A DNA stretch of 64,000 nucleotides, taken from assembly GCA_965541615.1 (NCBI GenBank), contig CBEUCJ010000004.1:21167-85166 (forward strand). Reading direction: 5' to 3'. This DNA comes from an uncultured bacterium (GTDB lineage Bacteria > Omnitrophota > Gorgyraeia > Duberdicusellales > CBEUCJ01). Every line of letters starts with the position of its first letter. Positions within the stretch are counted from its first letter, which is position 1. The position numbers were made by a program, and so were the translations under genes. The notes beneath the pieces are model-generated. The model was not told the origin of the DNA, did no database searches, and was given only the letters and a program-made list of their open reading frames with translations. This document shows positions 23,481-47,930 of the stretch, piece by piece.

Positions 23481-23933
23481 ATGATTGAAAAAGTATTTGT
23501 GAGTTCATGTTTGGTAGGGATTAAGACCAGATACAATAAAAAATCTGCTTATAATGAGAAGGTATTAGATTTTTTAAAGGATAAGATAGCAATAATAGGA
23601 TGCCCAGAAGTTTTAGCAGGTTTAAAGATACCTCGCCTTCCTTTAGAGATCAAAGGTAAAGTCCAAGATTTATTGAGAGGAGAAGCCAAAATAATAAACA
23701 AAAGAGGAAAGGACCTTACTCCAAAAATATTTACAGCGTGTTTAGAAATAGTTTTCATTTTGAAAAAATTGAAAGTAAAAACAGCTATCTTAAAGTCTTT
23801 AAGCCCTGTATGTGGGAGTGGTAAAATTTATGATGGGAGTTTTAAAGGTAGAATTATTAAAGGAGATGGATTATTAGCTTACTTATTAAAGAAAAACAAA
23901 ATAAGAGTTATAACAGATGCAGAATTTAGATAG
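23481..23933 (+). CDS. DUF523 family protein (TudS-like Fe-S thiouracil desulfidase family)
   Basis: Conserved Cys pattern SSCLVG…GCPE…C typical of DUF523. Confidence 0.55.
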   Translation: MIEKVFVSSCLVGIKTRYNKKSAYNEKVLDFLKDKIAIIGCPEVLAGLKIPRLPLEIKGKVQDLLRGEAKIINKRGKDLTPKIFTACLEIVFILKKLKVKTAILKSLSPVCGSGKIYDGSFKGRIIKGDGLLAYLLKKNKIRVITDAEFR

Positions 23934-24987
23934 AGCTTTAAAAGTTTTAGGTAGTCTTTCTTATTTTGAATCTACAGGTTACCATCTAAAAAACAGTGAT
24001 TTTTTAGATTTTATTTACCCTGCTAAAGCAGGTTCAAAAATTTTTAGATTATTTAAAATTTTACAGACTAATTTTTGCGAAGGAGATTGTAAGTATTGTA
24101 TTAACAGAAAGTATAGGAACACACAAAGGTATTATCTTTCTCCTAAAAGATTAGCCTCAGTATTTATGGAGTATTATAAAAAAAGAAAAGTAGATGGTCT
24201 ATTTTTATCTTCTGGAGTATTTAAATCTCCAAATTTTATGCAAGAAAAAATGTTAGAGACGATTTTGATATTAAGAAAGAAATTTTTCTATAAAGGCTTT
24301 ATTCATCTTAAAATATTACCAGGAGCAGATTTAGAACTGATAAAGAAATTTATAGGTTTGGTAGATAGAGTTTCTATAAATATAGAAGCTCCTACTCAAA
24401 ATCTGTTTAATACATTGACCTCTACCAAAAATTTTAAAGAAGATATTTTAAAAAGGCTTAAATTCTTATCAGAGTTAAATAAGAAAAAAGTATTCAAAAA
24501 AGGAGTGACTACTCAAATGATAGTTGGAATCTCAAATGAAAAAGACATTAATGTCTTAAAATCAGCTTATTTTCTTTACAAAAATTTCAATTTAAGTAGA
24601 GTCTATTACAGTGGCTTTATTCCTGTAAAAAATACGCCTTTAGAGAATCTTCCTATGTGTTCTTTAAAGAGAGAGTTGAGAATTTATCAAGCAGATATTT
24701 TATTAAGAAAGTATGGTTTTTCTGTTGAGGATTTAGTCTTTGATAAAGAAGGAAATCTTCCTTTACATACAGATCCTAAAACTTTATATGCTTTAAATCA
24801 TCCAGAATTATTTCCTATTAATATTAATAAAGCTAGTTTTAAAGAACTGTTGAAAATCCCTGGAGTAGGACCTATTAGTGCAAAAAGGATTTTATTTTTG
24901 AGAAAAGAAAAAAAGATATCTAAATTGACTGAATTAGAAAAAATAGGAGTAAACCTTAAAAGAGCCAAAGACTATGTTAAGTTCTAA
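23917..24987 (+). CDS. Radical SAM protein with C-terminal helix-hairpin-helix (putative DNA modification/repair radical SAM family)
   Basis: CEGDCKYC (CxxxCxxC) motif; C-terminal IPGVGPISAKRI HhH. Confidence 0.65.
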   Translation: MQNLDRALKVLGSLSYFESTGYHLKNSDFLDFIYPAKAGSKIFRLFKILQTNFCEGDCKYCINRKYRNTQRYYLSPKRLASVFMEYYKKRKVDGLFLSSGVFKSPNFMQEKMLETILILRKKFFYKGFIHLKILPGADLELIKKFIGLVDRVSINIEAPTQNLFNTLTSTKNFKEDILKRLKFLSELNKKKVFKKGVTTQMIVGISNEKDINVLKSAYFLYKNFNLSRVYYSGFIPVKNTPLENLPMCSLKRELRIYQADILLRKYGFSVEDLVFDKEGNLPLHTDPKTLYALNHPELFPININKASFKELLKIPGVGPISAKRILFLRKEKKISKLTELEKIGVNLKRAKDYVKF

Positions 24988-27352: not shown

Positions 27353-28198
27353 ATGAATTGTAAAAAAGAATTAGAAACCTTAAAAAAGTATTTCCAAAAA
27401 GAAAATGAAGTAATATTAGCTTTCCTTTTTGGTTCTCATGCAGAGGAGAGAGCGAGAAGCTTTTCTGATTGGGATATAGGAGTTTATTTTAAGCCAAAAG
27501 AATATTTAGAATTAGTTTCATCTTGTAGATACCCAAAAGAAGAAAAAATCTGGTCTGATTTGGTAGAGATATTAAAAACAGATAATATTGATTTTGTAGT
27601 ATTAAACAGAGCCTCTCCTGATTTAGTTTATAAAGTGTTAAAAGATGGGATCCCTTTAACAATTAAAGATGAAAAATTGTATTATGATCTTTTATGTAAA
27701 GCAAGTTATGAATCAATAGATTGGTGGCAATTTGTAGATGAATACTGGAGAATAAGAGAAAATGCAAAGTCTTTGAGTCCTCAGGCAAAAGCGCAGGTTC
27801 AGAAAAGGCTTATTTTTTTAGAAGAACAATTTCAGGATTTTGAATATTTTAAAAAATTAACTTTTTCTGTTTATTCTACAGATAGAAAGGAACGCAGAAA
27901 TGTAGAAAGATGGATAGAGAATTTGGTAATTTCAGCTATAGATATTGCTCAGATTTTTTTAGCTTCAGATAAAAAAGAGATTCCTCAAACTTACAAAGAG
28001 ATTTTAAAAGTATTCACCACTATTTACCTTAACTTTCCTCCTGAATCTGCTGAGAAATTTTCTGATTTTGTAAAATTGAGAAATATAATTACCCATGAAT
28101 ATTTAGATATTAGATGGCAAAAGATAAAAGATTTTATTGACCAAGGCTATTTTTTATATTCCCAGTTTATAGAAAAAGTAAAAGCTAAATTATTGTAA
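27353..28198 (+). CDS. Fused MntA-like nucleotidyltransferase / HepT-like (DUF86) HEPN protein
   Basis: N-terminal LFGSHAEERARSFSDWDIG (NTase GS…D.D); C-terminal RNIITHEY (Rx4HxY HEPN motif). Confidence 0.65.
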   Translation: MNCKKELETLKKYFQKENEVILAFLFGSHAEERARSFSDWDIGVYFKPKEYLELVSSCRYPKEEKIWSDLVEILKTDNIDFVVLNRASPDLVYKVLKDGIPLTIKDEKLYYDLLCKASYESIDWWQFVDEYWRIRENAKSLSPQAKAQVQKRLIFLEEQFQDFEYFKKLTFSVYSTDRKERRNVERWIENLVISAIDIAQIFLASDKKEIPQTYKEILKVFTTIYLNFPPESAEKFSDFVKLRNIITHEYLDIRWQKIKDFIDQGYFLYSQFIEKVKAKLL

Positions 28199-28248
28199 TA
28201 ACCTGTAATTATATAGCACTCTCTTCAGCGAAGCACAGAAAAGTAATT

Positions 28249-28638
28249 TTGAGAAAGTATGGTATAATAGGAAATGTGAAAGAAGAGCAATTGAAAACAA
28301 AAATCATAGAAATTTTTGACAAATATTTAGGAGAAGAATATATATTATTTCTTTTTGGCTCTTCTTCTAAAAAAACTTCTGATATTACTTCAGATATAGA
28401 TTTGGCAGTTTATTGTGATTATACTATTTCTCCTCTTTTAGTTCTTAAAATAAAAGAAGAACTTGAGCATAAACTACATACTCTAAAGGATATAGATTTG
28501 ATAAACCTCACTGATACCACTATAAATAAAAATTTGTTAGAAAGCATCCTAAGGGAGAGCATTTTATGGAAGAAAGGCAAAAATTATCAAGAACTTTTGA
28601 AAAGTTTGAGAGAGCGTTTAGAAAATTTGAAGAGGTAG
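28249..28638 (+). CDS. Minimal nucleotidyltransferase (MNT) antitoxin-like
   Basis: LFGSSS…SDIDLAV NTase motif. Confidence 0.7.
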   Translation: MRKYGIIGNVKEEQLKTKIIEIFDKYLGEEYILFLFGSSSKKTSDITSDIDLAVYCDYTISPLLVLKIKEELEHKLHTLKDIDLINLTDTTINKNLLESILRESILWKKGKNYQELLKSLRERLENLKR

Positions 28639-28994
28639 TAAGATCACCCTATCTTTTTGAGTTTTTAAATGAAGAATTAATAATTGAAATATCTACTAAG
28701 AGATTTGAATATACTTTTGAAAGCCTATGGAAGACATTGAAAGAATTTTTGAGAGTAGAAGGAGTAATTTGTTCTACACCTTTGCAGTGCTTTAAAGAAG
28801 CTTTTAAAAGAGGACTTATAAAAGAAGAAGATGAGAGTATATTTGCTCAAATGATAGAAAAAAGAAATAGGATAGTTCATATATGTGGACTCGAAGAAGC
28901 AAAAGAGATTTATGAATTTATAAAGAAAGAAGAAGTGTATTCTGCTCTCCAGAATATTTATGAGAAACTAAAGGACACAATAAAATCTTCTTAA
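28566..28994 (+). CDS. HEPN-domain protein (HI0074-like NTase substrate-binding), toxin-like partner of preceding MNT
   Basis: RNRIVH (Rx4H) motif; overlaps MNT gene. Confidence 0.7.
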   Translation: MEERQKLSRTFEKFERAFRKFEEVVRSPYLFEFLNEELIIEISTKRFEYTFESLWKTLKEFLRVEGVICSTPLQCFKEAFKRGLIKEEDESIFAQMIEKRNRIVHICGLEEAKEIYEFIKKEEVYSALQNIYEKLKDTIKSS

Positions 28995-29060: not shown

Positions 29061-29211
29061 AGCTATATTCTGATAAGTAAGATTCTTTTGAGCAGATAAT
29101 TTTGGTATATAGGCTTTTTAACTTTTTAAATATACTATGTGCCTTTACTTTTCTTGACAATAAAAATAAAAGATTAACAAAAAGATGAAGTAATGTATAA
29201 TAATTTAAATA

Positions 29212-30447
29212 ATGAAAAGAAAATTTGTAATTACAGGAATTGGAGTGGTAAGTTCAGTTGGAATTGGAAAAGAAGAATTTTGGAATGCATTAAAAGAAGG
29301 CAGACAAGGAGTAAAAGAAATAGAATATCCTGAGTTAAAAGAATTAAAAGTAAGAAAAGCTTACCAAGTTTCAGATTTAGAACCTGCTAAGTTTTTAGGT
29401 CATAAAGGATTAAGGAATTTAGATAAGCCAACTAAATTACTGCTAATTTCTGCAAAGTTAGCTTTAGAGGATGCAAATTTAGAAATTACAGAAAAAAATA
29501 CAGATTGTGTAGGAGTAGTTACAGGCACAACTTTAGGGAGTATTCCTTCTATAACTGAGTTTAATAAAGAAGTTCTTTTGGAGGGAATAGAATTTTCAAA
29601 CCCTGCACTTTTTCCTAACACAGTAATAAATGCTCCCTCTTCTCAAATTTCTATAAGATTTGGTATTCAAGGGTTTAATACTACCATTTCTACAGGTTTT
29701 ACTTCAAGTTTAGATGCGTTAAAATACGCTTTAGATTTTCTGGAATTAGAAAAAGCTCAACAGATTTTAGTAGGAGCTGTAGAGAGTTTAGATTTTTCTA
29801 TTTACTTTGGATTTTATAAATTGGGGTATTTAGCAGGAATAAGAGGACCTGAGATTATGTGTCCTTTTGATAGAAGAAGAAATGGAGTAATTTTAGGAGA
29901 AGGAGCAGTGAGTTTAATTTTAGAGACAGAATCTGAAGCAAAAAAAAGAAAGGCGAAGATTTATGCTGAGGTCAAAAGTTGTGTCCAATTTTTTGATGGA
30001 TTTAGGTTAGGCAAAATTCATCCTCAAGGAGAAGGTTTAGAAAGAGCTATAAAGAAAGCTGTGGAGATATCAGGATTAGATTTAAAAGATTTTGATTATG
30101 TAAACTGTTCTGCAAACTCCACAAAAGATTTAGATAAGATTGAACTTAATGTTTTAGAAAAAACTTTTGGGAAAAGATTATTAAAAAAAATTCCAATAAC
30201 TTCTATAAAATCTATGATCGGTGAGACTTATTCAGCTTCTGGAGCTTTTCAGATAGCAAGTTGCGTAGGAAGTTTTGTAAAGGGATTTATTCCAAGAACT
30301 TTAAATTATAAAGAAAAAGATCCTCAGCTTCCAGAGGTTAACATAGTAACTGATGATATGATAAAAAGTAAAATAAATAATATTTTAATTTCATGTTTTG
30401 GTCCGGGAGGATACAACTCAGCTTGCGTAATAAGTAGATATTCTTAA
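29212..30447 (+). CDS. Beta-ketoacyl synthase-like protein with all three catalytic residues substituted (CLF/KS-beta-like, Cys>Phe, His>Asn, His>Glu)
   Basis: Thiolase-fold KS sequence, but TGFTSSLDAL where TACSSSL is expected, CSANST where HGTGT is expected, IGETYSASGA where IGHxxGAAG is expected. Confidence 0.75.
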   Translation: MKRKFVITGIGVVSSVGIGKEEFWNALKEGRQGVKEIEYPELKELKVRKAYQVSDLEPAKFLGHKGLRNLDKPTKLLLISAKLALEDANLEITEKNTDCVGVVTGTTLGSIPSITEFNKEVLLEGIEFSNPALFPNTVINAPSSQISIRFGIQGFNTTISTGFTSSLDALKYALDFLELEKAQQILVGAVESLDFSIYFGFYKLGYLAGIRGPEIMCPFDRRRNGVILGEGAVSLILETESEAKKRKAKIYAEVKSCVQFFDGFRLGKIHPQGEGLERAIKKAVEISGLDLKDFDYVNCSANSTKDLDKIELNVLEKTFGKRLLKKIPITSIKSMIGETYSASGAFQIASCVGSFVKGFIPRTLNYKEKDPQLPEVNIVTDDMIKSKINNILISCFGPGGYNSACVISRYS

Positions 30448-30454
30448 AATTCTT

Positions 30455-31189
30455 ATGCAGGAATTTAAAAATAAGGTAGTAATTATTACTGGTGGAACAA
30501 GAGGAATAGGAAAAGAATTAGTAATAAAATTTTCACAACAAGGAGCAGATGTAATTTTTACTTATTTAAAAAATAAGAGTTTGGCAAATAAGATGAAAAA
30601 AGAATTTAAAAATGTTCTACCTATCCAAGCAGATGTAAAAAAATATGAAGATTGCAAAAAAGTAGTTGAGAAGGTTTTAAAAAAGTTTAAAAAAATAGAT
30701 ATTCTTGTAAATAATGCAGGAATAAGAAGAGATAAATCATTATTAATGATGGATTTAGAGGATTGGAGAGAAGTTTTAGATACAAATTTAAATGGTGTTT
30801 TTAATATGTGTAAAGCAAGCATAGTCTGGTTTATGAAGCAGAAGTTTGGTTGTATAATAAATATAAGTTCAGTAAGTGGAATAATGGGGTTAGTAGGACA
30901 AACAAATTACTCAGCTTCTAAAGCTGGAATTATTGGTTTTTCTAAAGCTTTAGCAAAAGAATTAGCCTCTTACAACATAAGAGTAAATGTAGTAGCTCCT
31001 GGGTTTATAGAAACAGATATGACCAAAGATTTAAGAGAAGAGTTTAAGAAAGAAATGGTTAAATTAATTCCTATGAAAAGATTTGGAACTCCTTCTGAAG
31101 TAGCTGAGCTATGTTTATTTTTAGCAAGTAATAAAGCAAGTTATATTACAGGAGAAATTATAAAAGTAGATGGAGGTTTGTGTATATAA
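30455..31189 (+). CDS. fabG: 3-oxoacyl-ACP reductase (SDR)
   Basis: TGGTRGIG, NNAG, YxxxK (YSASKAG) motifs. Confidence 0.85.
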   Translation: MQEFKNKVVIITGGTRGIGKELVIKFSQQGADVIFTYLKNKSLANKMKKEFKNVLPIQADVKKYEDCKKVVEKVLKKFKKIDILVNNAGIRRDKSLLMMDLEDWREVLDTNLNGVFNMCKASIVWFMKQKFGCIINISSVSGIMGLVGQTNYSASKAGIIGFSKALAKELASYNIRVNVVAPGFIETDMTKDLREEFKKEMVKLIPMKRFGTPSEVAELCLFLASNKASYITGEIIKVDGGLCI

Positions 31190-31204: not shown

Positions 31205-31462
31205 GTGGGTAAAAGAAAAGAAGTAGGAGATATTAAAAAAGAGATAAAAAAAGTTGTTTCAGAGATTGTAGAGGTTCCAGAATCAGAATTAAAAGAAGAT
31301 GCAGATTTCCAGGATTTGGGTGTTGATTCTATGATGGCTTTGGAGATTGTAGCTACTATTGAGAAAAAATTTAAGATAGTCATTCCTGAAGAGGAAATTC
31401 CAAAGGCTACTAACTTAAAAAAGATTTACGAGTTAGTAGAAAGACTTAAAAAGAAAAAATAA
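31205..31462 (+). CDS. Acyl carrier protein
   Basis: LGVDSM phosphopantetheine site; GTG start with AAAGGAG RBS. Confidence 0.8.
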   Translation: MGKRKEVGDIKKEIKKVVSEIVEVPESELKEDADFQDLGVDSMMALEIVATIEKKFKIVIPEEEIPKATNLKKIYELVERLKKKK

Positions 31463-31912
31463 GTGCAAGATATTAAAATAAAAAAAATTCTTCCTCACAG
31501 GTATCCTTTCATTTTTATAGACAAAGTAGAAGAGGTAGATTTAAAGAATAAAAAAATAATTTGCAAAAAGAAATTCAGCATCAGCGAGTATTTTTTCAAG
31601 GGTCATTTTCCACAGAATCCTGTCGCCCCAGGAGTTTTATTGATAGAAAGTATGGCTCAAAGTGCAATAATTTTATATGCAAGTATTTATCCTGAAATAG
31701 CTAAATTAAAACCAGATTATTATTTAGGAAAAGTATCTGCAAAGTTTTTGAATCCAGTTAAGATAGGAGATGTGCTAAAAATAGAAGTAAAAATGATCAA
31801 GTCTTTAAAAAATGCAGGTATTGTAGAAGCTGAATGTTTTGTTGAAGACAAAAAAGTATGTGAAGGTGTGTTAAGTTTTGGAGTAAAAGTAAATTCAACA
31901 TCAACTACTTAG
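31463..31912 (+). CDS. 3-hydroxyacyl-ACP dehydratase, FabZ-like hotdog
   Basis: LPHRYPFIFIDKV and HFP…PVAPGVL catalytic His motif; abuts ACP stop. Confidence 0.8.
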   Translation: MQDIKIKKILPHRYPFIFIDKVEEVDLKNKKIICKKKFSISEYFFKGHFPQNPVAPGVLLIESMAQSAIILYASIYPEIAKLKPDYYLGKVSAKFLNPVKIGDVLKIEVKMIKSLKNAGIVEAECFVEDKKVCEGVLSFGVKVNSTSTT

Positions 31913-31930: not shown

Positions 31931-33151
31931 ATGAAAAGAAGGGTAGTAATTACAGGGTTAGGAGTAGTGAGTCCTATAGGGATTGGCAAAGAGGAATTCT
32001 GGAAAAATTTAATAAAAGGTAAAAGTGGAGTAAGAAAAATAACTCTGTTTGATACTTCTAAATTTAAAAGACATTATGCAGCAGAAGTTAAAAATTTTAA
32101 CCCTTCTCAATTCATAGATAAAAGAAAACTTAAATTTTTAGGGCGTTCATCTCAACTTTCAATCGTAGCTACAATTTTAGCTTTAAAAGATGCTAATATA
32201 AATTTCAAAGATGTAAATGGAGTATTAATAGGAACTACAATGGCTGAACATCAACAAGTAGAAGTGCTTTTGAAAGAGTGGTTTAAAGGAGATAAAAAAA
32301 TAGAGAAAAATAGAGTAGTTTTATCTCCTGCAAGTAATTTGAGTGCGAATACAGCTCAAAGTTTAAAAATAAAAGGTTTAAATATGCTTATTCCCACAGC
32401 TTGCTCAGCTGGAAATTATACTATTAGTTATGGATTTGATTTAATTAAAAAAGGTGATGCTGATTGCATAATAGTAGGAGGAGCTGATGCTTTGTCATTC
32501 ATTGCTTTTTCAGGATTTCAAAGATTATACGCAATGGCTCCTAAAGTCTGTCAGCCTTTTGATAAGAATAGAAAAGGTATGATATTAGGAGAAGGAGCAG
32601 GAGTTTTGGTTTTAGAATCTTTAGAGAAAGCTTTAAAAAGGAAAGCAAAAATTTATGCAGAAATTTTAGGGTATGGGTTATCTTGTGATGCTTATCATAT
32701 GACGATCCCTCATTATAAAGGAATAGAAAAAGCAATAAAAAAAGCTTTAGATTCAGCAAATGTTAGTCCTGAGGACATAGATTACATATGTGCCCATGGA
32801 ACAGGAACTATTCAAAATGATAAAGCTGAATGCAAAGCTATAAAAAATGTGTTTGGCAGAAGATATAAAAAGATTCCTGTGAGTTCTATAAAATCTATGA
32901 TTGGACATTGTATGGGAGCAGCATCTAGTATAGAAGCAGTAGCTTGTTGTTTGGCAATTGAAAATGGAGTTATCCCCCCTACCATCAATTTCCAAACACC
33001 TGATCCTGAATGTGATATAGATTGCGTTCCTAACAAATCAAGAAAAGCAAATTTAAGAATAGTCCTAAACAATGGATTTGCTTTTGGTGGAAATAATTGT
33101 TGTGTGGTTTTAGGAAAAGTCAATGATCAAACTTATAAATTGCATCATTAA
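31931..33151 (+). CDS. Beta-ketoacyl-ACP synthase (active KS; Cys-His-His intact)
   Basis: IPTACSAG (Cys), CAHGTGT (His), KSMIGHCMGAAS (His). Confidence 0.85.
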   Translation: MKRRVVITGLGVVSPIGIGKEEFWKNLIKGKSGVRKITLFDTSKFKRHYAAEVKNFNPSQFIDKRKLKFLGRSSQLSIVATILALKDANINFKDVNGVLIGTTMAEHQQVEVLLKEWFKGDKKIEKNRVVLSPASNLSANTAQSLKIKGLNMLIPTACSAGNYTISYGFDLIKKGDADCIIVGGADALSFIAFSGFQRLYAMAPKVCQPFDKNRKGMILGEGAGVLVLESLEKALKRKAKIYAEILGYGLSCDAYHMTIPHYKGIEKAIKKALDSANVSPEDIDYICAHGTGTIQNDKAECKAIKNVFGRRYKKIPVSSIKSMIGHCMGAASSIEAVACCLAIENGVIPPTINFQTPDPECDIDCVPNKSRKANLRIVLNNGFAFGGNNCCVVLGKVNDQTYKLHH

Positions 33152-33267: not shown

Positions 33268-34380
33268 ATGGAAGAAAATAAAGTAGCCCTCCTTACAGGT
33301 TCTACAGGATTTTTAGGAAGTTTTTTAGCAAAAGAATTACTTGATAAAAATTATTTTCTTTATCTATTGGCTCGCCCTAAGAAAAATAAATCTGCATTTG
33401 AAAGAGTGATAGAAAGTTTGAAATTTGTTTATGAAGATGAATGGACTGATAAATTGTTATCTCGAATAAAAGTAATTTCAGGTGATATTACACAAGATAA
33501 TCTTGGGATTCATTCTAAAAAAGAAATAGAGGAACTCATTAAAGAGGTAGAGATTATATTTCATTCTGCTGCTTTAGCTGAGTTAAGGGTTCCTTTAGAG
33601 AAAATTAGAAAAATAAATGTGGAGGGAACAAGAAATATATTAAAGTTCGCTTTAAAATGTAAAGAAAAAGGGAGATTAAAAAAGGTAAATCATATAAGTA
33701 CAGCTTATGTAGTAGGTAAAAAAATAACTAATTTTAGTGAAGATATGTTAGATTTGGGTCAAGAATTTAATAATACATATGAGCAATCCAAATTTGAAGC
33801 AGAGCTTTTAATAAATGAATTTAGAGAAAAAGGTTTAAAGATTTCTATTTTTAGACCAAGTATGATAATGGGAGATTCCAAAACTGGAAAGACAAATAAA
33901 TTTAAAATATTTTATCAACTATTACATGCTTTTTCTTTAGAAATCTATAAAAAATTTCCAGCAAATTTAAAATCTACACAGAATCTAATAAATATAGATA
34001 CTGTAGCAAAAGCTGTAAGTATTTTAGGCGAAATAGAAGAAAATTCCACTTATCATATTGTGAGTCCAGAAGATACTTCTGTTGAATTTTTTATGAAATT
34101 AGTTTCAGATTATTTTGGATTTAAATTGCCAGAATTTATTCCTGTGGAAGAATTTAATTTTGACGAATGGAGTCCTGTTCAAAAAGCGTTGGCTGAGCCT
34201 TACATTCCTTATTTTAATTTTAAAACAAAATTTTTATCACAGAAAACTCAGCAGGCTCTTAAAAAATATAATTTTATTTATCCTAAGATTGATAAGAATA
34301 ATTTTTTTAATATTTTTGAATACTGGCATAAAAAAAGTTTCGTCAGGAAAAGCTTACATGGACCTCTTGCAATTAATTAG
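33268..34380 (+). CDS. Stand-alone thioester reductase-domain protein (fatty acyl-ACP/CoA reductase-like SDR)
   Basis: TGSTGFLGSFL (TGxTGFLG R-domain motif), YEQSK catalytic YxxxK. Confidence 0.7.
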   Translation: MEENKVALLTGSTGFLGSFLAKELLDKNYFLYLLARPKKNKSAFERVIESLKFVYEDEWTDKLLSRIKVISGDITQDNLGIHSKKEIEELIKEVEIIFHSAALAELRVPLEKIRKINVEGTRNILKFALKCKEKGRLKKVNHISTAYVVGKKITNFSEDMLDLGQEFNNTYEQSKFEAELLINEFREKGLKISIFRPSMIMGDSKTGKTNKFKIFYQLLHAFSLEIYKKFPANLKSTQNLINIDTVAKAVSILGEIEENSTYHIVSPEDTSVEFFMKLVSDYFGFKLPEFIPVEEFNFDEWSPVQKALAEPYIPYFNFKTKFLSQKTQQALKKYNFIYPKIDKNNFFNIFEYWHKKSFVRKSLHGPLAIN

Positions 34381-34941
34381 GTATCGTAGAACCATAAGAA
34401 AATATAAAGATAAATCACTTTCAAAAAAAATAATAAAAAGGATTATTATAGCTGGAAAATGGGCTCCTTCTCCTCATAATTCTCAACCATGGTTATTTGT
34501 GATAATAAGGAATGATAAGCTTAAGGAGGAACTTTTAAATTTGTTAAATAGATCTTCAAAAGAATTTTTGGTAGGCGTTAGAGTATTATTCAAGAATACT
34601 ATACAAATAATAAAAGAAGCTCCACTTATAATTTTAGTATACAATACAAAATCTCTCTCTCAAAAAGTTAAAAAATTAGGGAACCTTATTTTTCTAATGC
34701 TTATATTTCAGAAATACAAGGAATATCTTCTGCCATACAAAATATGTATTTGATGGCTACTTCTTTAGGCATAGGTATGGCTTGGTTGATGTTCCCATTG
34801 TTGGTTAAGGGAAAGATCAATAGATTACTTAAGATAAAAAAATATGAATTAGTTGCAATTTTAACATTAGGTTATCCTGCTGAAAGAGGAAAACGTTTAA
34901 AAAGGAAATCTTTATCTGAAATAGTAAAATTTATAGAATGA
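34358..34941 (+). pseudogene. Nitroreductase-family gene interrupted by a -1 frameshift in an A6 run near 34670-34676
   Basis: N-terminal part (RRTIRKY…PSPHNSQPW) and C-terminal part (AIQNMYLMATSLGIGMAW) are in different frames; one extra A restores …VKKIREPYFSNAY…. Confidence 0.6.
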
Positions 34942-35150: not shown

Positions 35151-35170
35151 AAGACAAAAATAATTTGCTT

Positions 35171-36460
35171 ATGGAATTTGATTATATTATTGTAGGAGCT
35201 GGTTTAAGCGGATTAAATTTAGCAAAAGAGTTAGTAAATAGAAAAAAGAAGGTTCTAATATTAGAGAAGGGACAATTCTTAAATAGAGTAGGTAGAATTT
35301 TTTACGCAGCAGCTTTTTATGATAAATGTGCTCTGGCAAAAAGTAAAGAAGGAGTTCTTATTTATAGAGTCTTTGGTGTAGGAGGAACTAGTATAGTAAG
35401 TTGTGCCAATGCTGTAGAGCCCTCTCAGGATATAAAAGAAAAGTTTAAAAAGTTTGGTATAGAGTTTGAAAAAGAGATAAAGGAAGTGAAGAGAGAATAC
35501 CAAGTAAGTGTTAAAAATTTACCGGTAGGAAAAGTTTCTTTAAAGATCATGGAGATTGCTAACAAATTAGGATATGAAACGAAAATTATGCCTAAATTCG
35601 GTGCTTCAGGAGAGTGCAGATTATGTGGGAGATGTGTTTTGGGATGTAGATGGGGGGTAAAGTGGACAGCGTTAAAATTTTTAGAGGATATAGATGAGAA
35701 GAATTTTAAAATAGTTACTAATTTCAATGTTAAAAAGATAATTATCTCCAATGGGAAAGCAAAGGGGGTGGAAGGAAGCTATTTAAAGATAAGAAAAAAG
35801 AAGTTTTATGCTGATAGAATAATTCTAGCTGCAGGAGGAATAGGAACACCTGTTATATTGCAAAATTCAGGAATTGAGGCAGGTAATAACTTATTTGTGG
35901 ATTACTTTAATGTAACTTATGGAATTCATCCTTCGCTTACTCAGAAAAAGGAGCCATGTATGTCTGTGATATGTGATAAGTTCCATCAAAATGAAGGATT
36001 TATATTATCTCCTTTTGTGGATAATTTTGTAGGTTTTCTTTCGTCTGTAAAAAAGAAATATTTTTTTAGAGTTTTTAAACTGAATCAAATTTTAGGAATT
36101 ATGACTAAGATTAAGGATGAAGAAAATGGTAAAGTTTTTAAAAATGGAGTAATAAAAAAGGAGCCTACTCAAAGAGATTTAGAAAAGTTGGAAAAGGGCA
36201 GTAAAATTGCTAAAGAAATTTTGATTAAATGTGGAGTAATTCCTCATAGTATAATTGTAACCAAACCCCGTGGTGCTCATCCTGGAGGAACTGCAAGAAT
36301 AGGTGAAGTAGTTAACAATAAATTGGAGACACAAATAAAAAATTTATTTGTATGTGACGCAAGTGTTTTGCCAACATCTTTAGGGATTCCCCCAATGCTA
36401 ACATTAATTGCTTTAGGAAAATGGTTTGTGAAAAATGTTTTAATAGAGGGAGTTAAATGA
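35171..36460 (+). CDS. GMC-family FAD-dependent oxidoreductase (short form)
   Basis: DYIIVGAGLSG N-terminal FAD motif; C-terminal GAHPGGTARIG…CDASVLP GMC signature. Confidence 0.65.
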   Translation: MEFDYIIVGAGLSGLNLAKELVNRKKKVLILEKGQFLNRVGRIFYAAAFYDKCALAKSKEGVLIYRVFGVGGTSIVSCANAVEPSQDIKEKFKKFGIEFEKEIKEVKREYQVSVKNLPVGKVSLKIMEIANKLGYETKIMPKFGASGECRLCGRCVLGCRWGVKWTALKFLEDIDEKNFKIVTNFNVKKIIISNGKAKGVEGSYLKIRKKKFYADRIILAAGGIGTPVILQNSGIEAGNNLFVDYFNVTYGIHPSLTQKKEPCMSVICDKFHQNEGFILSPFVDNFVGFLSSVKKKYFFRVFKLNQILGIMTKIKDEENGKVFKNGVIKKEPTQRDLEKLEKGSKIAKEILIKCGVIPHSIIVTKPRGAHPGGTARIGEVVNNKLETQIKNLFVCDASVLPTSLGIPPMLTLIALGKWFVKNVLIEGVK

Positions 36461-36612: not shown

Positions 36613-38052
36613 ATGCAAAAGAAATACGATGTAGTAATAATTGGAGCAGGAATTGGAGGTTTGGTTTGTGGATGCTATTTGGCAAAGGCAGGATTGAAGG
36701 TTTTGATTGTTGAGAAAAATGATAAGCCAGGAGGATATTGTACTTCTTTTGAAAGAGATGGGTATAGATTTGATGTGGGAGTGCATTATTTGGGAGGTAT
36801 AAAGAGAGGAACGTTAGGAAGAATTTTAGAAGAATTAGAAGTAAAGGATAATATAAAGTTTCGCCAGTTTGATCCTACAGATAAGATAGTTATGCCTGAG
36901 AATATAACTTATATAAGAGCGAACCCTTATGATACTATCAAAGAATTTAAAAAAAGTTTTCCTAATGAGAGAAAGAATATTGAAAGATTTTTTAAATTTG
37001 TGATGCAGAGGAATTTTTTAGAGATTTATAAAAAAATAAGAAAATTAACTTTTAAACAGATTTTAGATGCATTTTTCAACGATTATAAACTGAAAGGAGC
37101 ATTGAATGTATTATTAGGAAACATTGGAGTTCATGCAAGTATAGCTCCAGCTTTAAGTGGAGTGATTTTGTATAGAGAGTTTATTCTTGATCCAGGCTAT
37201 TATCCTGAAGGAGGGATGCAAAGTTTTTCTGATGCACTGGCTAAGAAATTTAAAGAGTACGGAGGAGAAATAATGTTTTCTGAAGAAGTGAAAAGGATTT
37301 TAGTGAAAAAGAAAAAAGTAGATAAAATTCTATTAAAGGGAAATAAGGAGATCTGTGGTAAAATAGTAATTTCTAATAATGATCCAAGACAAACCTTCTG
37401 TAGATTAATAAATATAAAGACTAAAGAATCTTATATTGTAAAGAAATTGCAATTAAGCCCTTCTATTTTTGGAATATATTTAGGAATAAATTTCAACCGA
37501 AAGAATGAGGTAAAAACATATCCCTGTGTGTGGATTTCTAGGATTTATGATTTAAATACCTCCTTTGTTCCTTCTATAGAAAGAATTGTAAAAGGTAAGT
37601 TTCTTTTATCAATGTTTACATTTTTCCCTATTTTACAAACCAAAGTTTCTATTGAAATATTTACATTAGTTCCTTTTGTTTCACATAGTTTTTGGAAGAA
37701 TCCACCAATGAGATTAGTAGAAGAGTTGATAAAAGCTGCCCAAAGAGAATTCGGTTTTAAAAAAAACAACTTAGAGATAAAGGAAATAGCTACTCCTGTA
37801 ACTTTTGAAAAATTCACTTCAAATACTCAAGGAGTAGCTTTTGGTTGGAAATCTACATTAAACCAAATAAAACTTTCTACATTTCCTTTAGAGACTTCTA
37901 TTAGAGGACTTTTTATAGCAAGTCAATGGGGGACTGTGGGGAGTGGACAAGGAGGGATTCCTAAAGTAGCTTTTTGTGGAAGAAAAACAGCTTATTTGGT
38001 ACTAAGTAAGTTAAAGAAAGAATGGCCATATTCTACACATTTGATAATGTAA
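36613..38052 (+). CDS. FAD-dependent oxidoreductase of the phytoene-desaturase (CrtI/CrtD-like) family
   Basis: YDVVIIGAGIGGL…VLIVEKNDKPGGY amine-oxidase/CrtI-type N-terminus. Confidence 0.65.
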   Translation: MQKKYDVVIIGAGIGGLVCGCYLAKAGLKVLIVEKNDKPGGYCTSFERDGYRFDVGVHYLGGIKRGTLGRILEELEVKDNIKFRQFDPTDKIVMPENITYIRANPYDTIKEFKKSFPNERKNIERFFKFVMQRNFLEIYKKIRKLTFKQILDAFFNDYKLKGALNVLLGNIGVHASIAPALSGVILYREFILDPGYYPEGGMQSFSDALAKKFKEYGGEIMFSEEVKRILVKKKKVDKILLKGNKEICGKIVISNNDPRQTFCRLINIKTKESYIVKKLQLSPSIFGIYLGINFNRKNEVKTYPCVWISRIYDLNTSFVPSIERIVKGKFLLSMFTFFPILQTKVSIEIFTLVPFVSHSFWKNPPMRLVEELIKAAQREFGFKKNNLEIKEIATPVTFEKFTSNTQGVAFGWKSTLNQIKLSTFPLETSIRGLFIASQWGTVGSGQGGIPKVAFCGRKTAYLVLSKLKKEWPYSTHLIM

Positions 38053-40206
38053 ATGATGAGTCTAAATTTATTTAGTATTTCTTCTTTTCTAATTTTCATT
38101 TTTAGTATTTCTTTGGGTATTTTTACTTTTTTAAAGAATAGAGAAAGAATAGGAAAAATATGGATTTCTTTTTGTTTTCTTGCTTCTATTTGGGGGTTTG
38201 GGGGATACAAGTTCTCTACGGTTTCTAACTACGACGATGCTTTTTTTTGGTGGCAGGTTGCATATATATGTGTAATTCTCTCTCCTGTGGTGTACACTCA
38301 TTTTGTATTTGTTTTTCTTGAAATAAAGAAGAAGTTTTTTTTGTGTTGTTTTTATATCTTAGCAGGAATATTTTTAGGACTTAATTTTTTTGCTCCTAAA
38401 CTTTTCTTAGGAGATTTAAGGTTCATATTTAATCAATTTTGGTGGCATGATTGGGTTAAGAGAAAAAATGTAGTATGGTTAATTTTTTATTTTTGTTTTT
38501 ACTGGTATCTTTTGGTATATTGCTTTTTTCTATTGATAAAATATTATAAGAGAACTTCTGGTGTAAAAAAGTTTCAGTTAAAATATTTTATATTAGCTTC
38601 AGTTTTTGGGTGGATAGGTCCAATTGTAGATTATCTTCCCGTTTTTCGGATCGATATTTATCCTTATGCTAATTTTTTAACAATTCTTTATCCCTTTCTT
38701 ATTACGTATGCCGTTGTCAAGTATCGTCTTATGGACATTCGCATTACGATTACTCAAACAGGCATTTTTGGTTTAGTTTATGCTTTGATATTGGCTATCC
38801 CTTTTGCAATAACTTTCTGGGGAAGAGGACATTTATATCCTTATTTTGGAGAATTCTGGTGGGTGCCTTCATTTATACTTTTAGCAGTTTTAGCTTCTAC
38901 AGGTCCTTTTATTTATATGTATTTACAAAAGAAAGCAACAGATTTTTTATTAAGAGAAGAGAGGAAGTATCAAGAGGCGCTTTTGGCTTTGGCAAAAGAA
39001 ATGGTGAATGAGAAAGATTTAGATAGATTATTGAGGATTATAGTTTTAAGAGTTTACAGATTAATGAAGTTAAAATTTACAGGAGTCTATTTATGTGAAA
39101 AAGAAGATAGTTTTGCTGTTTTGAAATATAAATGGCCTAAAAAAGAAAATCCATTGCCCCAAAGACTTCACTTACACACATCTTCTCTAATAAAAGCTAT
39201 TAAGGAAAAGAAATCTCCTTTTGGTTTAGATGAAGCAGAAGTCGATAAAGAATCAGAAGGTTTACCTGATTACGGAGCAATAATTCCTTCTTTTATGGAT
39301 GATACCTTAATTGGTTTTTTATTTTTAGGTCCTAAAAAGAAAGGAGATTTTTCGCCAAGAGACTATGAAGTATTTGAGACTTTAAGTTTACAAGCAGCTT
39401 TAGCTATTGAGAATGCTTTATATTTAGAAGAGTACAAAAAGACTCAAGAAGCTTTGTTTCAAGCTGAAAAATTAGCAAATATAGGTGTGATGGCTTCAGG
39501 GATGAGTCATCAGATGAATAACAGATTGCAGGTCATAAGTCTAATAGCAGGAGATATAAAAGATGAGATAAATTTCTTAAAGGAAACCGACCCTGAAACT
39601 CTAAAAACTTTCATTGCTCATGTAAAAGAAAATATGGAAAGATTAGAAGAAGAGATAAAGCATGGAAGAGAAGTGATAAGAGGTCTTTTAGATTATTCAA
39701 AGAAAAGACAGATAAGGTTTATGCTTGTAAATTTTGAAAAGGACATCTTGCAAGATGCTTTAAAACTTTTGTATACCAAGCAAAAAATAGAAGATGCAGA
39801 ACTCAACTTTGAGATTCAAAAAGATTTACCTTCTATTTGGGCAGAACCTACTCAGATGGCAGAAGTCGTGTTTAACTTATTAGACAACGCTTACGAAGCT
39901 GTAATTATGAAAAAGAATCATCTAAATGATTCAAATTTTAAAGGGAGAATAACATTGAAAGCCTACAGTATAAATGAATTTTTTAGAATAGATGTAGAGG
40001 ACAATGGAATAGGAATTAAAGAAGAAGATAAAAAGAAAATTTTTATCCCCTTTTTCACAACAAAATCTTCTACAAAATCAGGTTTTGGATTAGGTATGTA
40101 TGTAGTAAAGAGGATAATAGAATCTCATAAAGGTAAAATCTGGTTTGAATCTAAATATTTAGAAGGAACCAAATTCCATATAGAACTCCCCTTACCTCAA
40201 TTTTAA
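38053..40206 (+). CDS. Sensor histidine kinase with large multi-TM N-terminal sensor, no adjacent response regulator
   Basis: About 10 TM helices, then HisKA (SHQMNNRL) and HATPase_c (DNGIGI…GFGLGM) motifs. Confidence 0.75.
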   Translation: MMSLNLFSISSFLIFIFSISLGIFTFLKNRERIGKIWISFCFLASIWGFGGYKFSTVSNYDDAFFWWQVAYICVILSPVVYTHFVFVFLEIKKKFFLCCFYILAGIFLGLNFFAPKLFLGDLRFIFNQFWWHDWVKRKNVVWLIFYFCFYWYLLVYCFFLLIKYYKRTSGVKKFQLKYFILASVFGWIGPIVDYLPVFRIDIYPYANFLTILYPFLITYAVVKYRLMDIRITITQTGIFGLVYALILAIPFAITFWGRGHLYPYFGEFWWVPSFILLAVLASTGPFIYMYLQKKATDFLLREERKYQEALLALAKEMVNEKDLDRLLRIIVLRVYRLMKLKFTGVYLCEKEDSFAVLKYKWPKKENPLPQRLHLHTSSLIKAIKEKKSPFGLDEAEVDKESEGLPDYGAIIPSFMDDTLIGFLFLGPKKKGDFSPRDYEVFETLSLQAALAIENALYLEEYKKTQEALFQAEKLANIGVMASGMSHQMNNRLQVISLIAGDIKDEINFLKETDPETLKTFIAHVKENMERLEEEIKHGREVIRGLLDYSKKRQIRFMLVNFEKDILQDALKLLYTKQKIEDAELNFEIQKDLPSIWAEPTQMAEVVFNLLDNAYEAVIMKKNHLNDSNFKGRITLKAYSINEFFRIDVEDNGIGIKEEDKKKIFIPFFTTKSSTKSGFGLGMYVVKRIIESHKGKIWFESKYLEGTKFHIELPLPQF

Positions 40207-41580: not shown

Positions 41581-42069
41581 ATGCCACACAGAAGGCATAG
41601 AAAAGGAATGATGTGGTGGCATATGAGGTTTATAGATGCAGGTTTTAGAATGACTTTGCCAAGACAAGCAATTATGGAGGTTTTAAGTAACACTACAGAG
41701 CATTTGAGTGCTGAAGAAATATACCTTAAAGTGCGCAAAAGATATCCTGGAATAGGACTTACAACTGTGTACAGAACTTTAGATATTCTAGTTAACATGG
41801 GACTCATATCTAAATTTGATTTTGGAGATGGCAGAGCACGTTATGAATTATCAGAGACTTCAAAGGGTGCAAAACCTCATCATCATCATTTGGTATGTAG
41901 AGAGTGTGGGAAAATAATAGATTATACAGAGTTTATAGATGATGAAGTAGAATTAATTAACAACATTCAGAAAAAACTTTCAGAAAAATATAACTTTAAG
42001 ATAACAAATCACATTATTCAATTTTATGGATTGTGTGATAAATGTCAGCAGAAGAATAAAGTAACGTAA
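41581..42069 (+). CDS. fur: Ferric uptake regulator family transcriptional regulator (Fur/Zur/PerR)
   Basis: Winged-helix N-terminus; HHHHLVCRECG and CDKC metal sites. Confidence 0.8.
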   Translation: MPHRRHRKGMMWWHMRFIDAGFRMTLPRQAIMEVLSNTTEHLSAEEIYLKVRKRYPGIGLTTVYRTLDILVNMGLISKFDFGDGRARYELSETSKGAKPHHHHLVCRECGKIIDYTEFIDDEVELINNIQKKLSEKYNFKITNHIIQFYGLCDKCQQKNKVT

Positions 42070-43115: not shown

Positions 43116-43634
43116 ATGAAAATTTGCGTAACAGCTCAAGGAAATACTTTAGAATCTTTGGTAGATCCCAGATTTGGAAGAGCTCAATATTTTATAATTT
43201 ATGATACTGAGACTGATTCTTTTGAAAGTATCTTAAATCCAAATTTAAATCTATTTTCAGGAGCAGGAATTCAAAGTGCACAACTTATAGTACAAAAAGG
43301 AGTTCAAGTTTTAATTACAGGAAACGTGGGACCCAATGCTTTTAATGTATTAACAGCTGCTGGAATAAATATAATAACAGGTATAATGGGAGTATCAGTA
43401 AAGGAAGCTATAGAAAGATTTAAGAGAGGAGAGTTGAATTTTACTTTTTCTCCAACAGTCTCTAAACACTTTGGAGCTCAAATGTATCCACCAAACTTTG
43501 GGACGATGCCATATCAATTTCAAACTTCTAAAGCACAAGAACTTAATATGTTAAAACAACAACTTCAATTTTTAAAACAGCAGATCGAGATGATAAACCA
43601 GAGAATAAAGGAGTTAGAAAAAAATGAGCAATAA
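43116..43634 (+). CDS. NifB/NifX-fold protein ('dinitrogenase FeMo-cofactor-binding' domain) with a C-terminal aromatic+coiled-coil extension homologous to the preceding small proteins
   Basis: …DPRFGRAQYFIIYD…ITGNVGPNAF…; tail GAQMYPPNFGTMPYQF…LKQQLQFLKQQIEMINQRIKELE. Confidence 0.65.
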   Translation: MKICVTAQGNTLESLVDPRFGRAQYFIIYDTETDSFESILNPNLNLFSGAGIQSAQLIVQKGVQVLITGNVGPNAFNVLTAAGINIITGIMGVSVKEAIERFKRGELNFTFSPTVSKHFGAQMYPPNFGTMPYQFQTSKAQELNMLKQQLQFLKQQIEMINQRIKELEKNEQ

Positions 43635-43914
43635 AGCTACAGTCCTTAAAGAAATTTGTAGAGGATGTGGACTTTGTGCTTTTAGTTGTCCTCAGAATGC
43701 TATAACTATCATCTTTGGAAAAGCTGAAGTAGATAAATCTAAGTGTATAGGATGCAGAAGATGCATCCAAGTATGTCCTGTAAAAGCTATTGTAATCACT
43801 CCTTCTGTAAATAAAGAAGAAGTAGAGATTTTTAAAAAACAGGTTAGAAGATTAAAGGAGAGAATAACGACTGTTAACAGAAAGATAAAAGATTTATTAG
43901 AAAAAAGGAGGTGA
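43624..43914 (+). CDS. 2x[4Fe-4S] ferredoxin with C-terminal basic coiled-coil tail
   Basis: CRGCGLCAFSCP and CIGCRRCIQVCP; tail …RRLKERITTVNRKIKDLLEKRR. Confidence 0.75.
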   Translation: MSNKATVLKEICRGCGLCAFSCPQNAITIIFGKAEVDKSKCIGCRRCIQVCPVKAIVITPSVNKEEVEIFKKQVRRLKERITTVNRKIKDLLEKRR

Positions 43915-43917
43915 TTT

Positions 43918-44625
43918 TTGAAAGTAGCTATAGCTGTAGATAAAGGTAAAGTTTCAGCTCATTTTGGAAGATGTGAAGAGTTTGTCTTATTAGAAATAGA
44001 AGATTCAAAAGTAATCAGTAAAAAAATGATTAAAAATCCAGGACATAAACCTGGATTTCTACCTCAATTTTTAAAGGAGCTAAAAGTAGATGTAATAATC
44101 ACAGGAGGGATGGGTAAAAAAGCTTTAGAATTGTTTGAGAAAGCGCAAATAAAAGTTATTTTGGGGATCACAGGAGAAGTTGAAGACGTAATAAATGAGT
44201 TTTTGAAAGGTAATTTAAAAAGTAAGGAAAGTTTATGTACACGAGATACATTTAAAGAAACTGAAGTTAAGTATTATAAAGAAAAAGGTAGTAAGATTTG
44301 TATTACTTCTAAAGGAGATAGTTTAGATTCAGAGTTAGATCCTAATTTTGGAAGGTGCAACTATTTTATCATTTTTGATTTAGAGAGTTCAGATTACGAA
44401 GCTATAGAAAACCCTTATAAAGATTTACCTCAAGGAGCAGGGATAAGGAGCGCTCAATTTGTTATAGAAAAAAATGTAGATACTCTTTTAACAGGAGAAG
44501 TAGGTCCTCATGCTCAGGAAGTTTTACAGAAAGGCGGGGTTAATTTAATAAAAAGAATTTCAGGAAGAGTAAGAGAAGTAATTGAAGCGTTTAAAAAAGG
44601 AGGACCTAATTATGTGGGGCAATAG
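43918..44625 (+). CDS. Tandem NifB/NifX-fold domain protein (two 'FeMo-cofactor-binding'-like domains)
   Basis: Two repeats of …FGR(C)..F…D…ITGG/TGEVGP… pattern; TTG start with RBS GGAGGTGA. Confidence 0.6.
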   Translation: MKVAIAVDKGKVSAHFGRCEEFVLLEIEDSKVISKKMIKNPGHKPGFLPQFLKELKVDVIITGGMGKKALELFEKAQIKVILGITGEVEDVINEFLKGNLKSKESLCTRDTFKETEVKYYKEKGSKICITSKGDSLDSELDPNFGRCNYFIIFDLESSDYEAIENPYKDLPQGAGIRSAQFVIEKNVDTLLTGEVGPHAQEVLQKGGVNLIKRISGRVREVIEAFKKGGPNYVGQ

Positions 44626-44800
44626 AGAAGAAGATATCAATAGAATTCAGAGAGGACAAGGAAGGATGGGTAGAAGAGGTTTAGGTCCTGGAGGATTTTG
44701 TAAATGCTTAAGATGTGGCACAAGAATTCCTCATCAAAGAGGAACCCCTTGTTATACTTTAACTTGTCCTAACTGTGGGGCAAGGATGGTTAGAGAATAA
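44612..44800 (+). CDS. Small Gly/Arg-rich zinc-ribbon protein (CxC…CG…CPNCG)
   Basis: GRMGRRGLGPGGFCKCLRCG…CPNCG; ORF-track start 44582 would overlap upstream gene, ATG 44612 preferred. Confidence 0.5.
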   Translation: MWGNREEDINRIQRGQGRMGRRGLGPGGFCKCLRCGTRIPHQRGTPCYTLTCPNCGARMVRE

Positions 44801-44821
44801 TTTTGAAGTTTTTTGAAAAAA

Positions 44822-45673: not shown

Positions 45674-45687
45674 GAGGGGGGTAGAGT

Positions 45688-47034: not shown

Positions 47035-47040
47035 AGAGAG

Positions 47041-47916: not shown

Positions 47917-47930
47917 TTGGAATAATTATT

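Follow-up and report, generated by a model that had tools for sequence, protein, structure and literature searches.

Classical chain-length factors (CLFs) are ketosynthase (KS)-fold proteins in which the active-site Cys is replaced by Gln (CDD cd00832 description). In type II polyketide synthases (PKSs), the inactive CLF and the KS assemble into a heterodimer in which the CLF shapes or closes the acyl tunnel, and the CLF gene lies directly downstream of the KS-alpha gene, often translationally coupled to it (PMC9006962). A second inactive KS-fold subunit, amxFabFmut, was described in a May 2026 preprint as part of the amxFabF2/amxFabFmut heterodimer of the anammox bacterium Brocadia fulgida (PDB 9s5h), encoded in the putative ladderane 'Cluster I' (10.64898/2026.05.19.726425). 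Here, we analyze a 64,000-nucleotide stretch of DNA from an uncultured bacterium (contig CBEUCJ010000004.1; hereafter, the window), which encodes on the plus strand, at 29212..30447, a 411-residue FabF paralogue of the amxFabFmut type that lacks the catalytic triad. We refer to this protein as KSmut.

The anammox pair provides the closest guide to its function. The preprint reports that amxFabF2 and amxFabFmut are each inactive alone; when co-expressed, they co-purify, decarboxylate malonyl loaded onto the acyl carrier protein (ACP) amxACP and make acetoacetyl-ACP (10.64898/2026.05.19.726425). Crystal structures at 2.6 and 2.1 Å resolution revealed a KS/CLF-like heterodimer, in which Phe135, Thr138, and Val139 of the inactive subunit wall part of the active tunnel, and mutants of Phe135/Val139 shift the length preference in crosslinking assays. 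amxFabFmut further contributes to the docking surface for ACP, and its own tunnel, from which no catalytic triad can be reached, was judged unlikely to be catalytic. By analogy with this pair, KSmut is very probably a non-catalytic, CLF-like subunit that forms a heterodimer with the KS encoded downstream (31931..33151), completes its tunnel and ACP docking surface, and is needed for activity.

Fold and catalytic positions of KSmut

We established the register of the catalytic motifs from three alignments: BLASTP against the downstream KS, HMMER against 9s5h_C and 9s5h_B, and MAFFT of 120 homologues. All three are gap-free at the three motifs and yield an identical register. Cys158 of the KS (PTACSAGN) lies opposite Phe163 of KSmut (STGFTSSL), His289 (CAHGTGT) opposite Ser300 (NCSANST), and His326 (IGHCMGAASS) opposite Glu338 (IGETYSASGA). 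The complete loss of the triad proposed in an earlier note on this DNA is borne out (F163/S300/E338), and two of its assignments, Cys to Phe and second His to Glu, agree with all three alignments. Its third assignment, Asn for the first His (His1), was off by two residues: the replacing residue is Ser300, which precedes Ala301-Asn302-Ser303, and Asn302 sits opposite the Thr of HGTGT, at the His+2 position. The misregistration that the note itself had named as its possible undoing thus affects the first His, whereas the register was right for the other two motifs. A true Asn at His1 exists in relatives, namely in Brocadia amxFabFmut (YISANAYSG) and in an Omnitrophota subgroup (YISANANST). The downstream KS had been described as intact, and it does retain Cys/His/His, together with the Lys and the gating Phe.

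KSmut contains both KS Pfam domains (PF00109, 6.9e-31; PF02801, 2.3e-23), scores 286.4 bits against the NCBIfam FabF model TIGR03150, under its 493.75 cutoff, and shares 35% identity with the downstream KS in the BLASTP alignment. An AlphaFold2 (AF2) model (mean pLDDT 79, pTM 0.86) adopts the FabF fold, and its top Foldseek match is B. subtilis FabF (TM 0.89) in a PDB library up to 2026-04-08, which predates 9s5h and leaves that entry outside the structural ranking. The preprint likewise gives B. subtilis FabF as the nearest structure for amxFabFmut (10.64898/2026.05.19.726425). A HMMER search of PDB sequences with KSmut ranks 9s5h_C first (4e-90), followed by 9s5h_B (1.7e-61) and then ordinary FabFs.

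The two proteins of the window correspond one to one to the two anammox subunits. Pairwise identity is 41% between KSmut and amxFabFmut and 54% between the window KS and amxFabF2, and the best PDB match of the window KS is 9s5h_B (9.5e-141), with the Iga11 ketosynthase second (1.6e-109). Phe135, Thr138, and Val139 of amxFabFmut correspond to F134, T137, and V138 of KSmut, and the same F/T/V combination occurs in 63 of 85 family members. On the active side, A164, F203, M337, and F394 of amxFabF2 are conserved in the window KS as A157, F196, M328, and F385. The earlier note had taken KSmut for a purely structural partner. The non-catalytic part of that description agrees with the homology to inactive amxFabFmut and with the location in the same operon as an intact KS. 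'Purely structural' is too weak, because the residues that amxFabFmut supplies to the tunnel wall, in addition to part of the ACP docking surface, are conserved here.

Conservation of the family and readings of its role

We scanned GTDB at one genome per species, which gave 156 relatives, and examined the best 80. The 84 fetched loci comprise these 80 species genomes plus two loci from metagenome-assembled genomes and their Logan duplicates. Close relatives of KSmut, 48–61% identical, are found in at least 80 species genomes; the scan returned no identical locus, the best being 61%. Among these 80, most labels read Omnitrophota (the complete genome of Ca. Velamenicoccus archaeovorus is one), Nitrospirota/Thermodesulfovibrionia, or Endomicrobiales. 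The core KSmut–ketoreductase (KR)–ACP–dehydratase (DH)–KS is present in nearly every locus of sufficient length, with the order KR–KSmut in Nitrospirota. A literature search on fatty-acid synthesis in Omnitrophota returned nothing relevant.

KSmut lacks the triad in all 84 fetched loci, and the partner KS carries Cys/His/His in all 62 where it was recoverable. Glu occupies the second His position (His2) in 84/84 family members, and the gating Phe is replaced by Pro in 83/84. Likewise, none of the best 120 database matches (at least 51% identity) has a complete triad: the Cys position holds Tyr or Phe, with one sequence retaining Cys, His1 is replaced by Cys, Ser, Asn, Ala, or Gly, and His2 by Glu, or by Asp in two. 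The A-N-S that follows the His1 position is invariant in the MAFFT alignment (121/121 sequences). Across 21 sequences 51–76% identical to KSmut, 59 columns are invariant, including Lys333. Relatives share the loss of the triad and a near-constant His2>Glu exchange, while their replacements at Cys and His1 vary. Nor is the variant unusual, as had been supposed: triad-less FabF paralogues were tabulated in 2009 (PMC2649909), and the family is abundant. KSmut adds one more, non-anammox, example of an inactive FabF paralogue of the kind tabulated in 2009 and structurally explained in 2026.

An exhaustive HMMER search of 1.84 billion cluster representatives, of which we examined the best 150, extends the family further. 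Among these are ~50 additional 50%-identity clusters of ~400-residue triad-less proteins, in which His2>Glu is almost universal and the Cys position holds F, Y, M, I, V, E, Q, S, A, L, N, P, or R. A Gln-bearing representative (P0157), considered as a candidate PKS CLF, proved to be of the amxFabFmut type. The same 150 representatives include 46 fused proteins of ~660–870 residues (P0125–P0269), whose N-terminal KS domain has Cys and His1 in 46/46 and the full Cys/His/His in 44/46, and whose C-terminal domain is triad-less. These natural fusions of a KS to a triad-less domain supply independent, Rosetta-stone support for physical pairing. Several fusions carry x-A-N-[SG] and Glu signatures.

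With Brocadia amxFabFmut as the query, the top 120 matches are all from anammox bacteria, at 65% identity or more; the same protein reaches 50% identity to Omnitrophota family members. A neighbour-joining tree splits the triad-less proteins from active KSs in 100/100 bootstraps and places them in one clade next to FabF2-type KSs; the anammox clade is monophyletic. Support in this tree is usable only for the deepest split and for anammox monophyly, and a separate tree of 50%-identity representatives was star-like; a sister relation between the anammox clade and the Omnitrophota 'FNE' subgroup received 0/100 bootstraps.

Constraint on the gene was gauged against the closest relative, L085, which shares 77% amino acid identity and synteny over >20 kb. 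The ratio of nonsynonymous to synonymous substitution rates (dN/dS) is 0.20 for KSmut, 0.11 for the KS, 0.13 for the KR, 0.13 for the ACP, and 0.15 for the DH, next to 0.09–0.19 for flanking housekeeping genes, all values being approximate at a dS of 0.5–1.1. Because its dN/dS is 0.20, KSmut is under purifying selection, somewhat looser than that on its catalytic partner.

The anammox structures suggest how such a subunit may work in the window. KSmut keeps the full FabF fold but has neither a nucleophile nor the His pair, so that it would be unable to take up an acyl chain or to carry out the usual decarboxylation of malonyl-ACP. It would pair with the intact KS four genes downstream, replacing the second subunit of a FabF homodimer, with F134, T137, and V138 of its helix-loop-helix lining part of the acyl tunnel of the KS. 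KSmut may further form part of the docking surface for the operon's own ACP, and would activate the KS and set the chain lengths it accepts in the fashion of a CLF. The heterodimer, the inactivity of single subunits, and the effect of F135/V139 on length come from the anammox homologue, and we infer that they carry over to the window pair.

Several observations weigh against this role. Identity to amxFabFmut is a mere 41%, and three genes separate KSmut from the KS, while the anammox pair adjoins. The invariant Glu at His2 (84/84) and A-N-S (121/121) exceed what filler residues would need, and could reflect a residual chemical role. The published interface is asymmetric, with a positive mut subunit and a negative KS (10.64898/2026.05.19.726425), but the net charge of aligned interface segments, a crude proxy for a three-dimensional surface, did not reproduce this asymmetry even for the Brocadia pair, giving -3 for the Brocadia mut helix-loop-helix that the preprint describes as positive, which makes the proxy uninformative. 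Lastly, the AF2 monomer of KSmut is least confident at residues 108–138 (nt ~29533..29625), the helix-loop-helix itself. In the crystallized S. brodae amxFabFmut homodimer this segment showed no order, which it acquired solely in the heterodimer (10.64898/2026.05.19.726425), a suggestive parallel to the predicted model rather than evidence.

The invariant residues bear most directly on the idea that KSmut is a neofunctionalised enzyme, in which the aromatic residue at the Cys position, A-N-S, Glu338, and the retained Lys333 form a new site and the partner is optional. Such an enzyme might perform its own chemistry on an ACP-bound chain, such as decarboxylation of malonyl-ACP for priming, isomerisation, or cyclisation. 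A distinct reaction was indeed proposed by Rattray et al. (PMC2649909), and the anammox heterodimer decarboxylates malonyl-ACP, an activity that the accessible part of the preprint does not assign to one subunit by mutagenesis (10.64898/2026.05.19.726425). The constancy of Glu at His2, near-universal even in the ~50 distant clusters, and of A-N-S and Lys333 would suit a new site; the Cys position, free to take 13 different residues, and the His1 position, filled by C, S, N, A, or G, do not. Since the gating Phe is also Pro in 83/84 KSmut proteins, and the homologue is inactive alone with a tunnel judged unlikely to be catalytic (10.64898/2026.05.19.726425), we regard neofunctionalisation as unlikely.

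We also weighed whether KSmut might be a classical type II PKS CLF (KS-beta) and the operon a highly reducing, polyene-type PKS like the ishigamide or aryl-polyene systems. Points in favor are the lack of a recognisable enoyl reductase in the operon, the rank of the Iga11 ketosynthase (1.6e-109) directly behind 9s5h_B among the PDB matches of the partner KS, and weak ApeP/ApeI-like Pfam matches of the dehydratase in relatives. Yet the Cys position holds Phe163 and not Gln, and KSmut lies upstream of the KS, with KR, ACP, and DH in between and no coupling. The actinorhodin CLF 1tqy_B (5.2e-33) ranks below more than 50 FabF/FabB entries in the HMMER search against PDB, where Iga12 is not among the best 60 matches, and the triad-less clade sits next to FabF2-type KSs, separated from active KSs in 100/100 bootstraps. 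Sequence comparison points to a FabF-derived origin of the KSmut family, independent of PKS CLFs, and makes the PKS interpretation very unlikely. In functional terms, a PKS CLF and the heterodimer subunit proposed above overlap, both being inactive tunnel-shaping partners. A decaying duplicate without a role would account for the absence of all three catalytic residues and for a dN/dS about twice that of the partner KS. It is hardly credible for an intact 411-residue open reading frame (ORF) with 59 invariant columns in 21 sequences, whose place and sequence are conserved in 80 species genomes from at least two phyla, at a dN/dS within the housekeeping range. Pseudogene and assembly-artefact readings were rejected on the same grounds of conservation and dN/dS.

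The operon and its neighborhood

The window is AT-rich (27–34% GC), with nearly all genes on the plus strand. KSmut is the first gene of its operon and follows a 217-nt gap that contains a promoter-like site, TTAACA-16-TATAAT (29174..29201, plus strand), matching the consensus at 11 of 12 positions and ending ~10 nt before the KSmut ATG. This is the best match in an 11.8-kb scan and the sole one in the region to reach 11 of 12, but 63 sites in the scan compare with 53.8 expected, making it weak evidence. We saw no obvious Shine-Dalgarno sequence between this site and the ATG, and the leader of KSmut could be very short or absent (leaderless).

Four genes on the plus strand complete the core. 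The FabG-type KR, a 3-oxoacyl-ACP reductase (30455..31189; adh_short_C2, 5.5e-71), scores 318.7 against TIGR01830 (cutoff 297.75) and is present in 69 related loci. It is followed by a dedicated ACP of the amxACP type (31205..31462), which has a PP-binding domain with the DS phosphopantetheine-attachment motif and matches the anammox entries 7qv0_D (1.5e-14), 7auf_A, and 9s5i_E, down to 2.4e-12, with canonical ACPs in PDB at 2e-9 or weaker. The next gene encodes a 3-hydroxyacyl-ACP dehydratase of the amxFabZ type (31463..31912). Three residues are hallmarks of amxFabZ: position 69 holds Ile instead of the Gly that lines the canonical tunnel, and positions 96 and 115 are non-basic, unlike the Arg/Lys with which canonical FabZ docks ACP (JBC 2023, PMC10139942). 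The window enzyme has Ile69, Leu96, and Leu115, as opposed to Gly/Arg/Arg and Gly/Arg/Lys in the aligned canonical Campylobacter and Pseudomonas FabZ, and 53 of 61 related loci have Ile as the bulky tunnel residue. The amxFabF2-type active KS (31931..33151; C158/H289/H326, gate F385) closes the core. The KSmut/KS pair works with this KR, amxFabZ-type dehydratase, and dedicated ACP.

Downstream on the plus strand lie candidate release and tailoring enzymes. A stand-alone thioester/acyl reductase of the NAD_binding_4 family (33268..34380; PF07993, 2.4e-62; below the TIGR01746 cutoff) probably releases the chain reductively. A nitroreductase-family gene (34358..34941) is split by a frameshift, its N-terminal part running to a stop at 34753 and its C-terminal part lying in another frame (34708..34941). 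The split falls at about the same place in L085 (16572..17155), with a 129-residue first piece in both, and the gene is a single 201-residue ORF in another relative, L003; it might be a pseudogene common to the window and L085, encode a protein made in two pieces, or rely on programmed frameshifting. A GMC-family flavin oxidoreductase, identified by Pfam (35165..36460), and a CrtI/phytoene-desaturase-like flavoenzyme (36613..38052), seen in 30 related loci, complete the set. Many Omnitrophota-type loci likewise contain genes for the thioester reductase, the GMC oxidoreductase, and the nitroreductase. Between the window and L085, the thioester reductase is 41% and the CrtI-like protein 50% identical, next to 72–89% for their neighbors, and the GMC and nitroreductase genes are swapped in order. 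The tailoring genes appear to be exchanged or fast-evolving around a stable KS core. In Nitrospirota-type clusters, a third, distant KS-like gene (~435 residues, 24–33% identical to the window KS) lies by the CrtI-like gene (L001 14607..15914), and a 513-residue protein that combines START/polyketide-cyclase and ornithine-cyclodeaminase/mu-crystallin-like parts is encoded near the cluster in 16 loci (L056 2571..4109 and 15 others).

None of the scanned ORFs of the window was recognizable as an enoyl reductase, a FabD, or a FabH. From a dehydratase tunnel blocked by Ile, a constriction conserved near C8, the lack of a recognisable enoyl reductase, and the presence of a thioester reductase, we tentatively propose a short-to-medium, possibly unsaturated chain that the reductase would release as an aldehyde or alcohol and the flavoenzymes would tailor. 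In many Omnitrophota loci, genes for a lipoyl ligase/octanoyltransferase (LplA-B_cat), a lipoyl carrier, and an E3-like Pyr_redox_2 protein stand directly upstream of the KSmut operon (L003 6268..8586 and 17–19 others), an arrangement absent from the window; given the C8-type tunnel features, a link of the operon to octanoyl-ACP/lipoate supply is conceivable.

Directly downstream of the operon, a HisKA_7TM-GAF-HATPase sensor histidine kinase is encoded on the plus strand (38053..40206). This seven-transmembrane (7TM) kinase adjoins the KSmut/KS cluster in 43 related loci from both Omnitrophota and Nitrospirota (among them L001 15911..18031, L003, and L085 18701..20845). Response regulators, including RR-HD-GYP types, are often found near it, and the combination suggests that the pathway has a control system of its own, which may sense membranes or lipids. 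The sole radical S-adenosylmethionine (SAM) gene among the Pfam-scanned window ORFs (23917..24987) is of the HhH type without a B12 domain and lies 4 kb upstream amid unrelated genes. Pfam annotation of the relatives L001, L003, and L085 likewise showed no B12 radical-SAM gene, and neither did a Pfam check of ten recurrent gene clusters, a subset of all recurrent ones.

The remainder of the window holds several features apart from the operon. Between a CLP1_P gene and the KSmut operon, three toxin-antitoxin-type genes of nucleotidyltransferase (NTase)/HEPN (HepT-like) families (27353..28994), a fused NTase-HepT gene followed by an overlapping NTase and HEPN pair, are probably an insertion, since the corresponding place in the syntenic L085 has none. 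A type II restriction-modification pair (4055..5687) consists of an N6/N4 DNA methylase and then a BsaWI-like endonuclease. The sole minus-strand ORF of at least 120 residues encodes a 1024-residue CARDB-repeat protein (5769..8843) and coincides with the single negative bin of an otherwise uniformly positive GC-skew profile. Downstream, a Fur-family regulator (41581..42069) precedes a cluster at 43116..49651 that encodes two Nitro_FeMo-Co (NifX/NifB-C-terminal-like) proteins, three P-loop Fe-S ATPases (two of the MinD/ParA type with 4Fe-4S ferredoxin inserts and one of the NUBPL/ParA type), a pyridine-nucleotide disulfide oxidoreductase, and an ARMT1-like phosphatase.

Comparison with the anammox module and other systems

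The whole amx-type module, comprising ACP, FabZ, FabF2, and FabFmut with their diagnostic residues, occurs together in many non-anammox genomes, with no B12 radical-SAM gene seen in the relatives and recurrent clusters checked. Structural papers call the cluster unique to, or exclusive to, ladderane producers (10.64898/2026.05.19.726425; PMC10139942), a claim that its presence in non-anammox genomes qualifies. The occurrence of the module outside anammox bacteria is only partly new, because genome mining had earlier reported 'ladderane' clusters, as assigned by antiSMASH, in bacteria other than anammox (PMC11968836). We see an even chance that the anammox fatty-acid module, its CrtI-like flavoenzyme included, is not ladderane-specific, being one branch of an old, widespread pathway of Omnitrophota, Nitrospirota, and other bacteria with a different product. 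Such a pathway might yield an unsaturated fatty aldehyde or alcohol of short or medium length, a guess made because a thioester reductase, a GMC oxidoreductase, and a nitroreductase often accompany the module. If this history holds, anammox bacteria added a B12 radical-SAM enzyme to an inherited module, and the enrichable Ca. Velamenicoccus archaeovorus would be a natural 'minus-rSAM' comparator for ladderane biosynthesis. The ladderane-specific part would be narrowed to the radical-SAM step, and the many natural KS/KSmut tunnel variants would offer a test bed for how an inactive subunit sets chain length.

Canonical FabF (β-ketoacyl-ACP synthase II, KAS II) is the closest fold, with 27–32% identity to KSmut. 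KSmut differs from it in lacking the triad, in having Pro for the gating Phe, in scoring below the TIGR03150 cutoff, and in its predicted assembly as a heterodimer rather than a homodimer. With the CLFs (actinorhodin CLF 1TQY_B, Iga12, AntE, and ApeC), KSmut would share the role of an inactive KS-fold heterodimer partner. It lacks their Cys>Gln exchange, stands in another gene arrangement, and is far less similar to a CLF than to FabF; ApeC, moreover, is half-sized, unlike KSmut.

The closest likeness is to amxFabFmut (Kuste3606/Broful02170; 9s5h chain C, 9s5i), which has the FabF fold, has lost the triad, carries Glu at His2, and is identical in the F/T/V tunnel residues. As in the anammox cluster, KSmut is encoded with a FabF2-type KS, an amxACP-type ACP, an Ile-bearing FabZ, and a CrtI-like flavoenzyme, the last placed as the PDH of Cluster I and alike by position alone. 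The proteins differ at the Cys position (Phe in KSmut, Val/Thr in amxFabFmut) and at His1 (Ser versus Asn), and KSmut is 41% identical to amxFabFmut, with other members of its family reaching up to 50%. The anammox homologues form a separate, tight clade of at least 65% identity. The window operon is without the B12 radical-SAM gene of the anammox cluster, and has a KR, a thioester reductase, a GMC oxidoreductase, and a nitroreductase beyond the anammox set. Nor is its host an anammox bacterium (Brocadiales), with ~30% GC and closest relatives labelled Omnitrophota, Nitrospirota, or Endomicrobiales. In the 2009 tabulation, Kuste3606 is listed as Val/Asn/Glu and Kuste2805, a 'non-canonical FabB' of Kuenenia stuttgartiensis, as Phe/Asn/Glu, with Phe163, Asn298, Asn300, Lys328, and Glu333 (Rattray et al. 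2009, PMC2649909, Table 2). Compared by these listed residues alone, Kuste2805 resembles KSmut and the Omnitrophota 'FNE' subgroup in its pattern of Phe, Asn at 300, and Glu, and differs in belonging to a separate small cluster with a radical-SAM gene.

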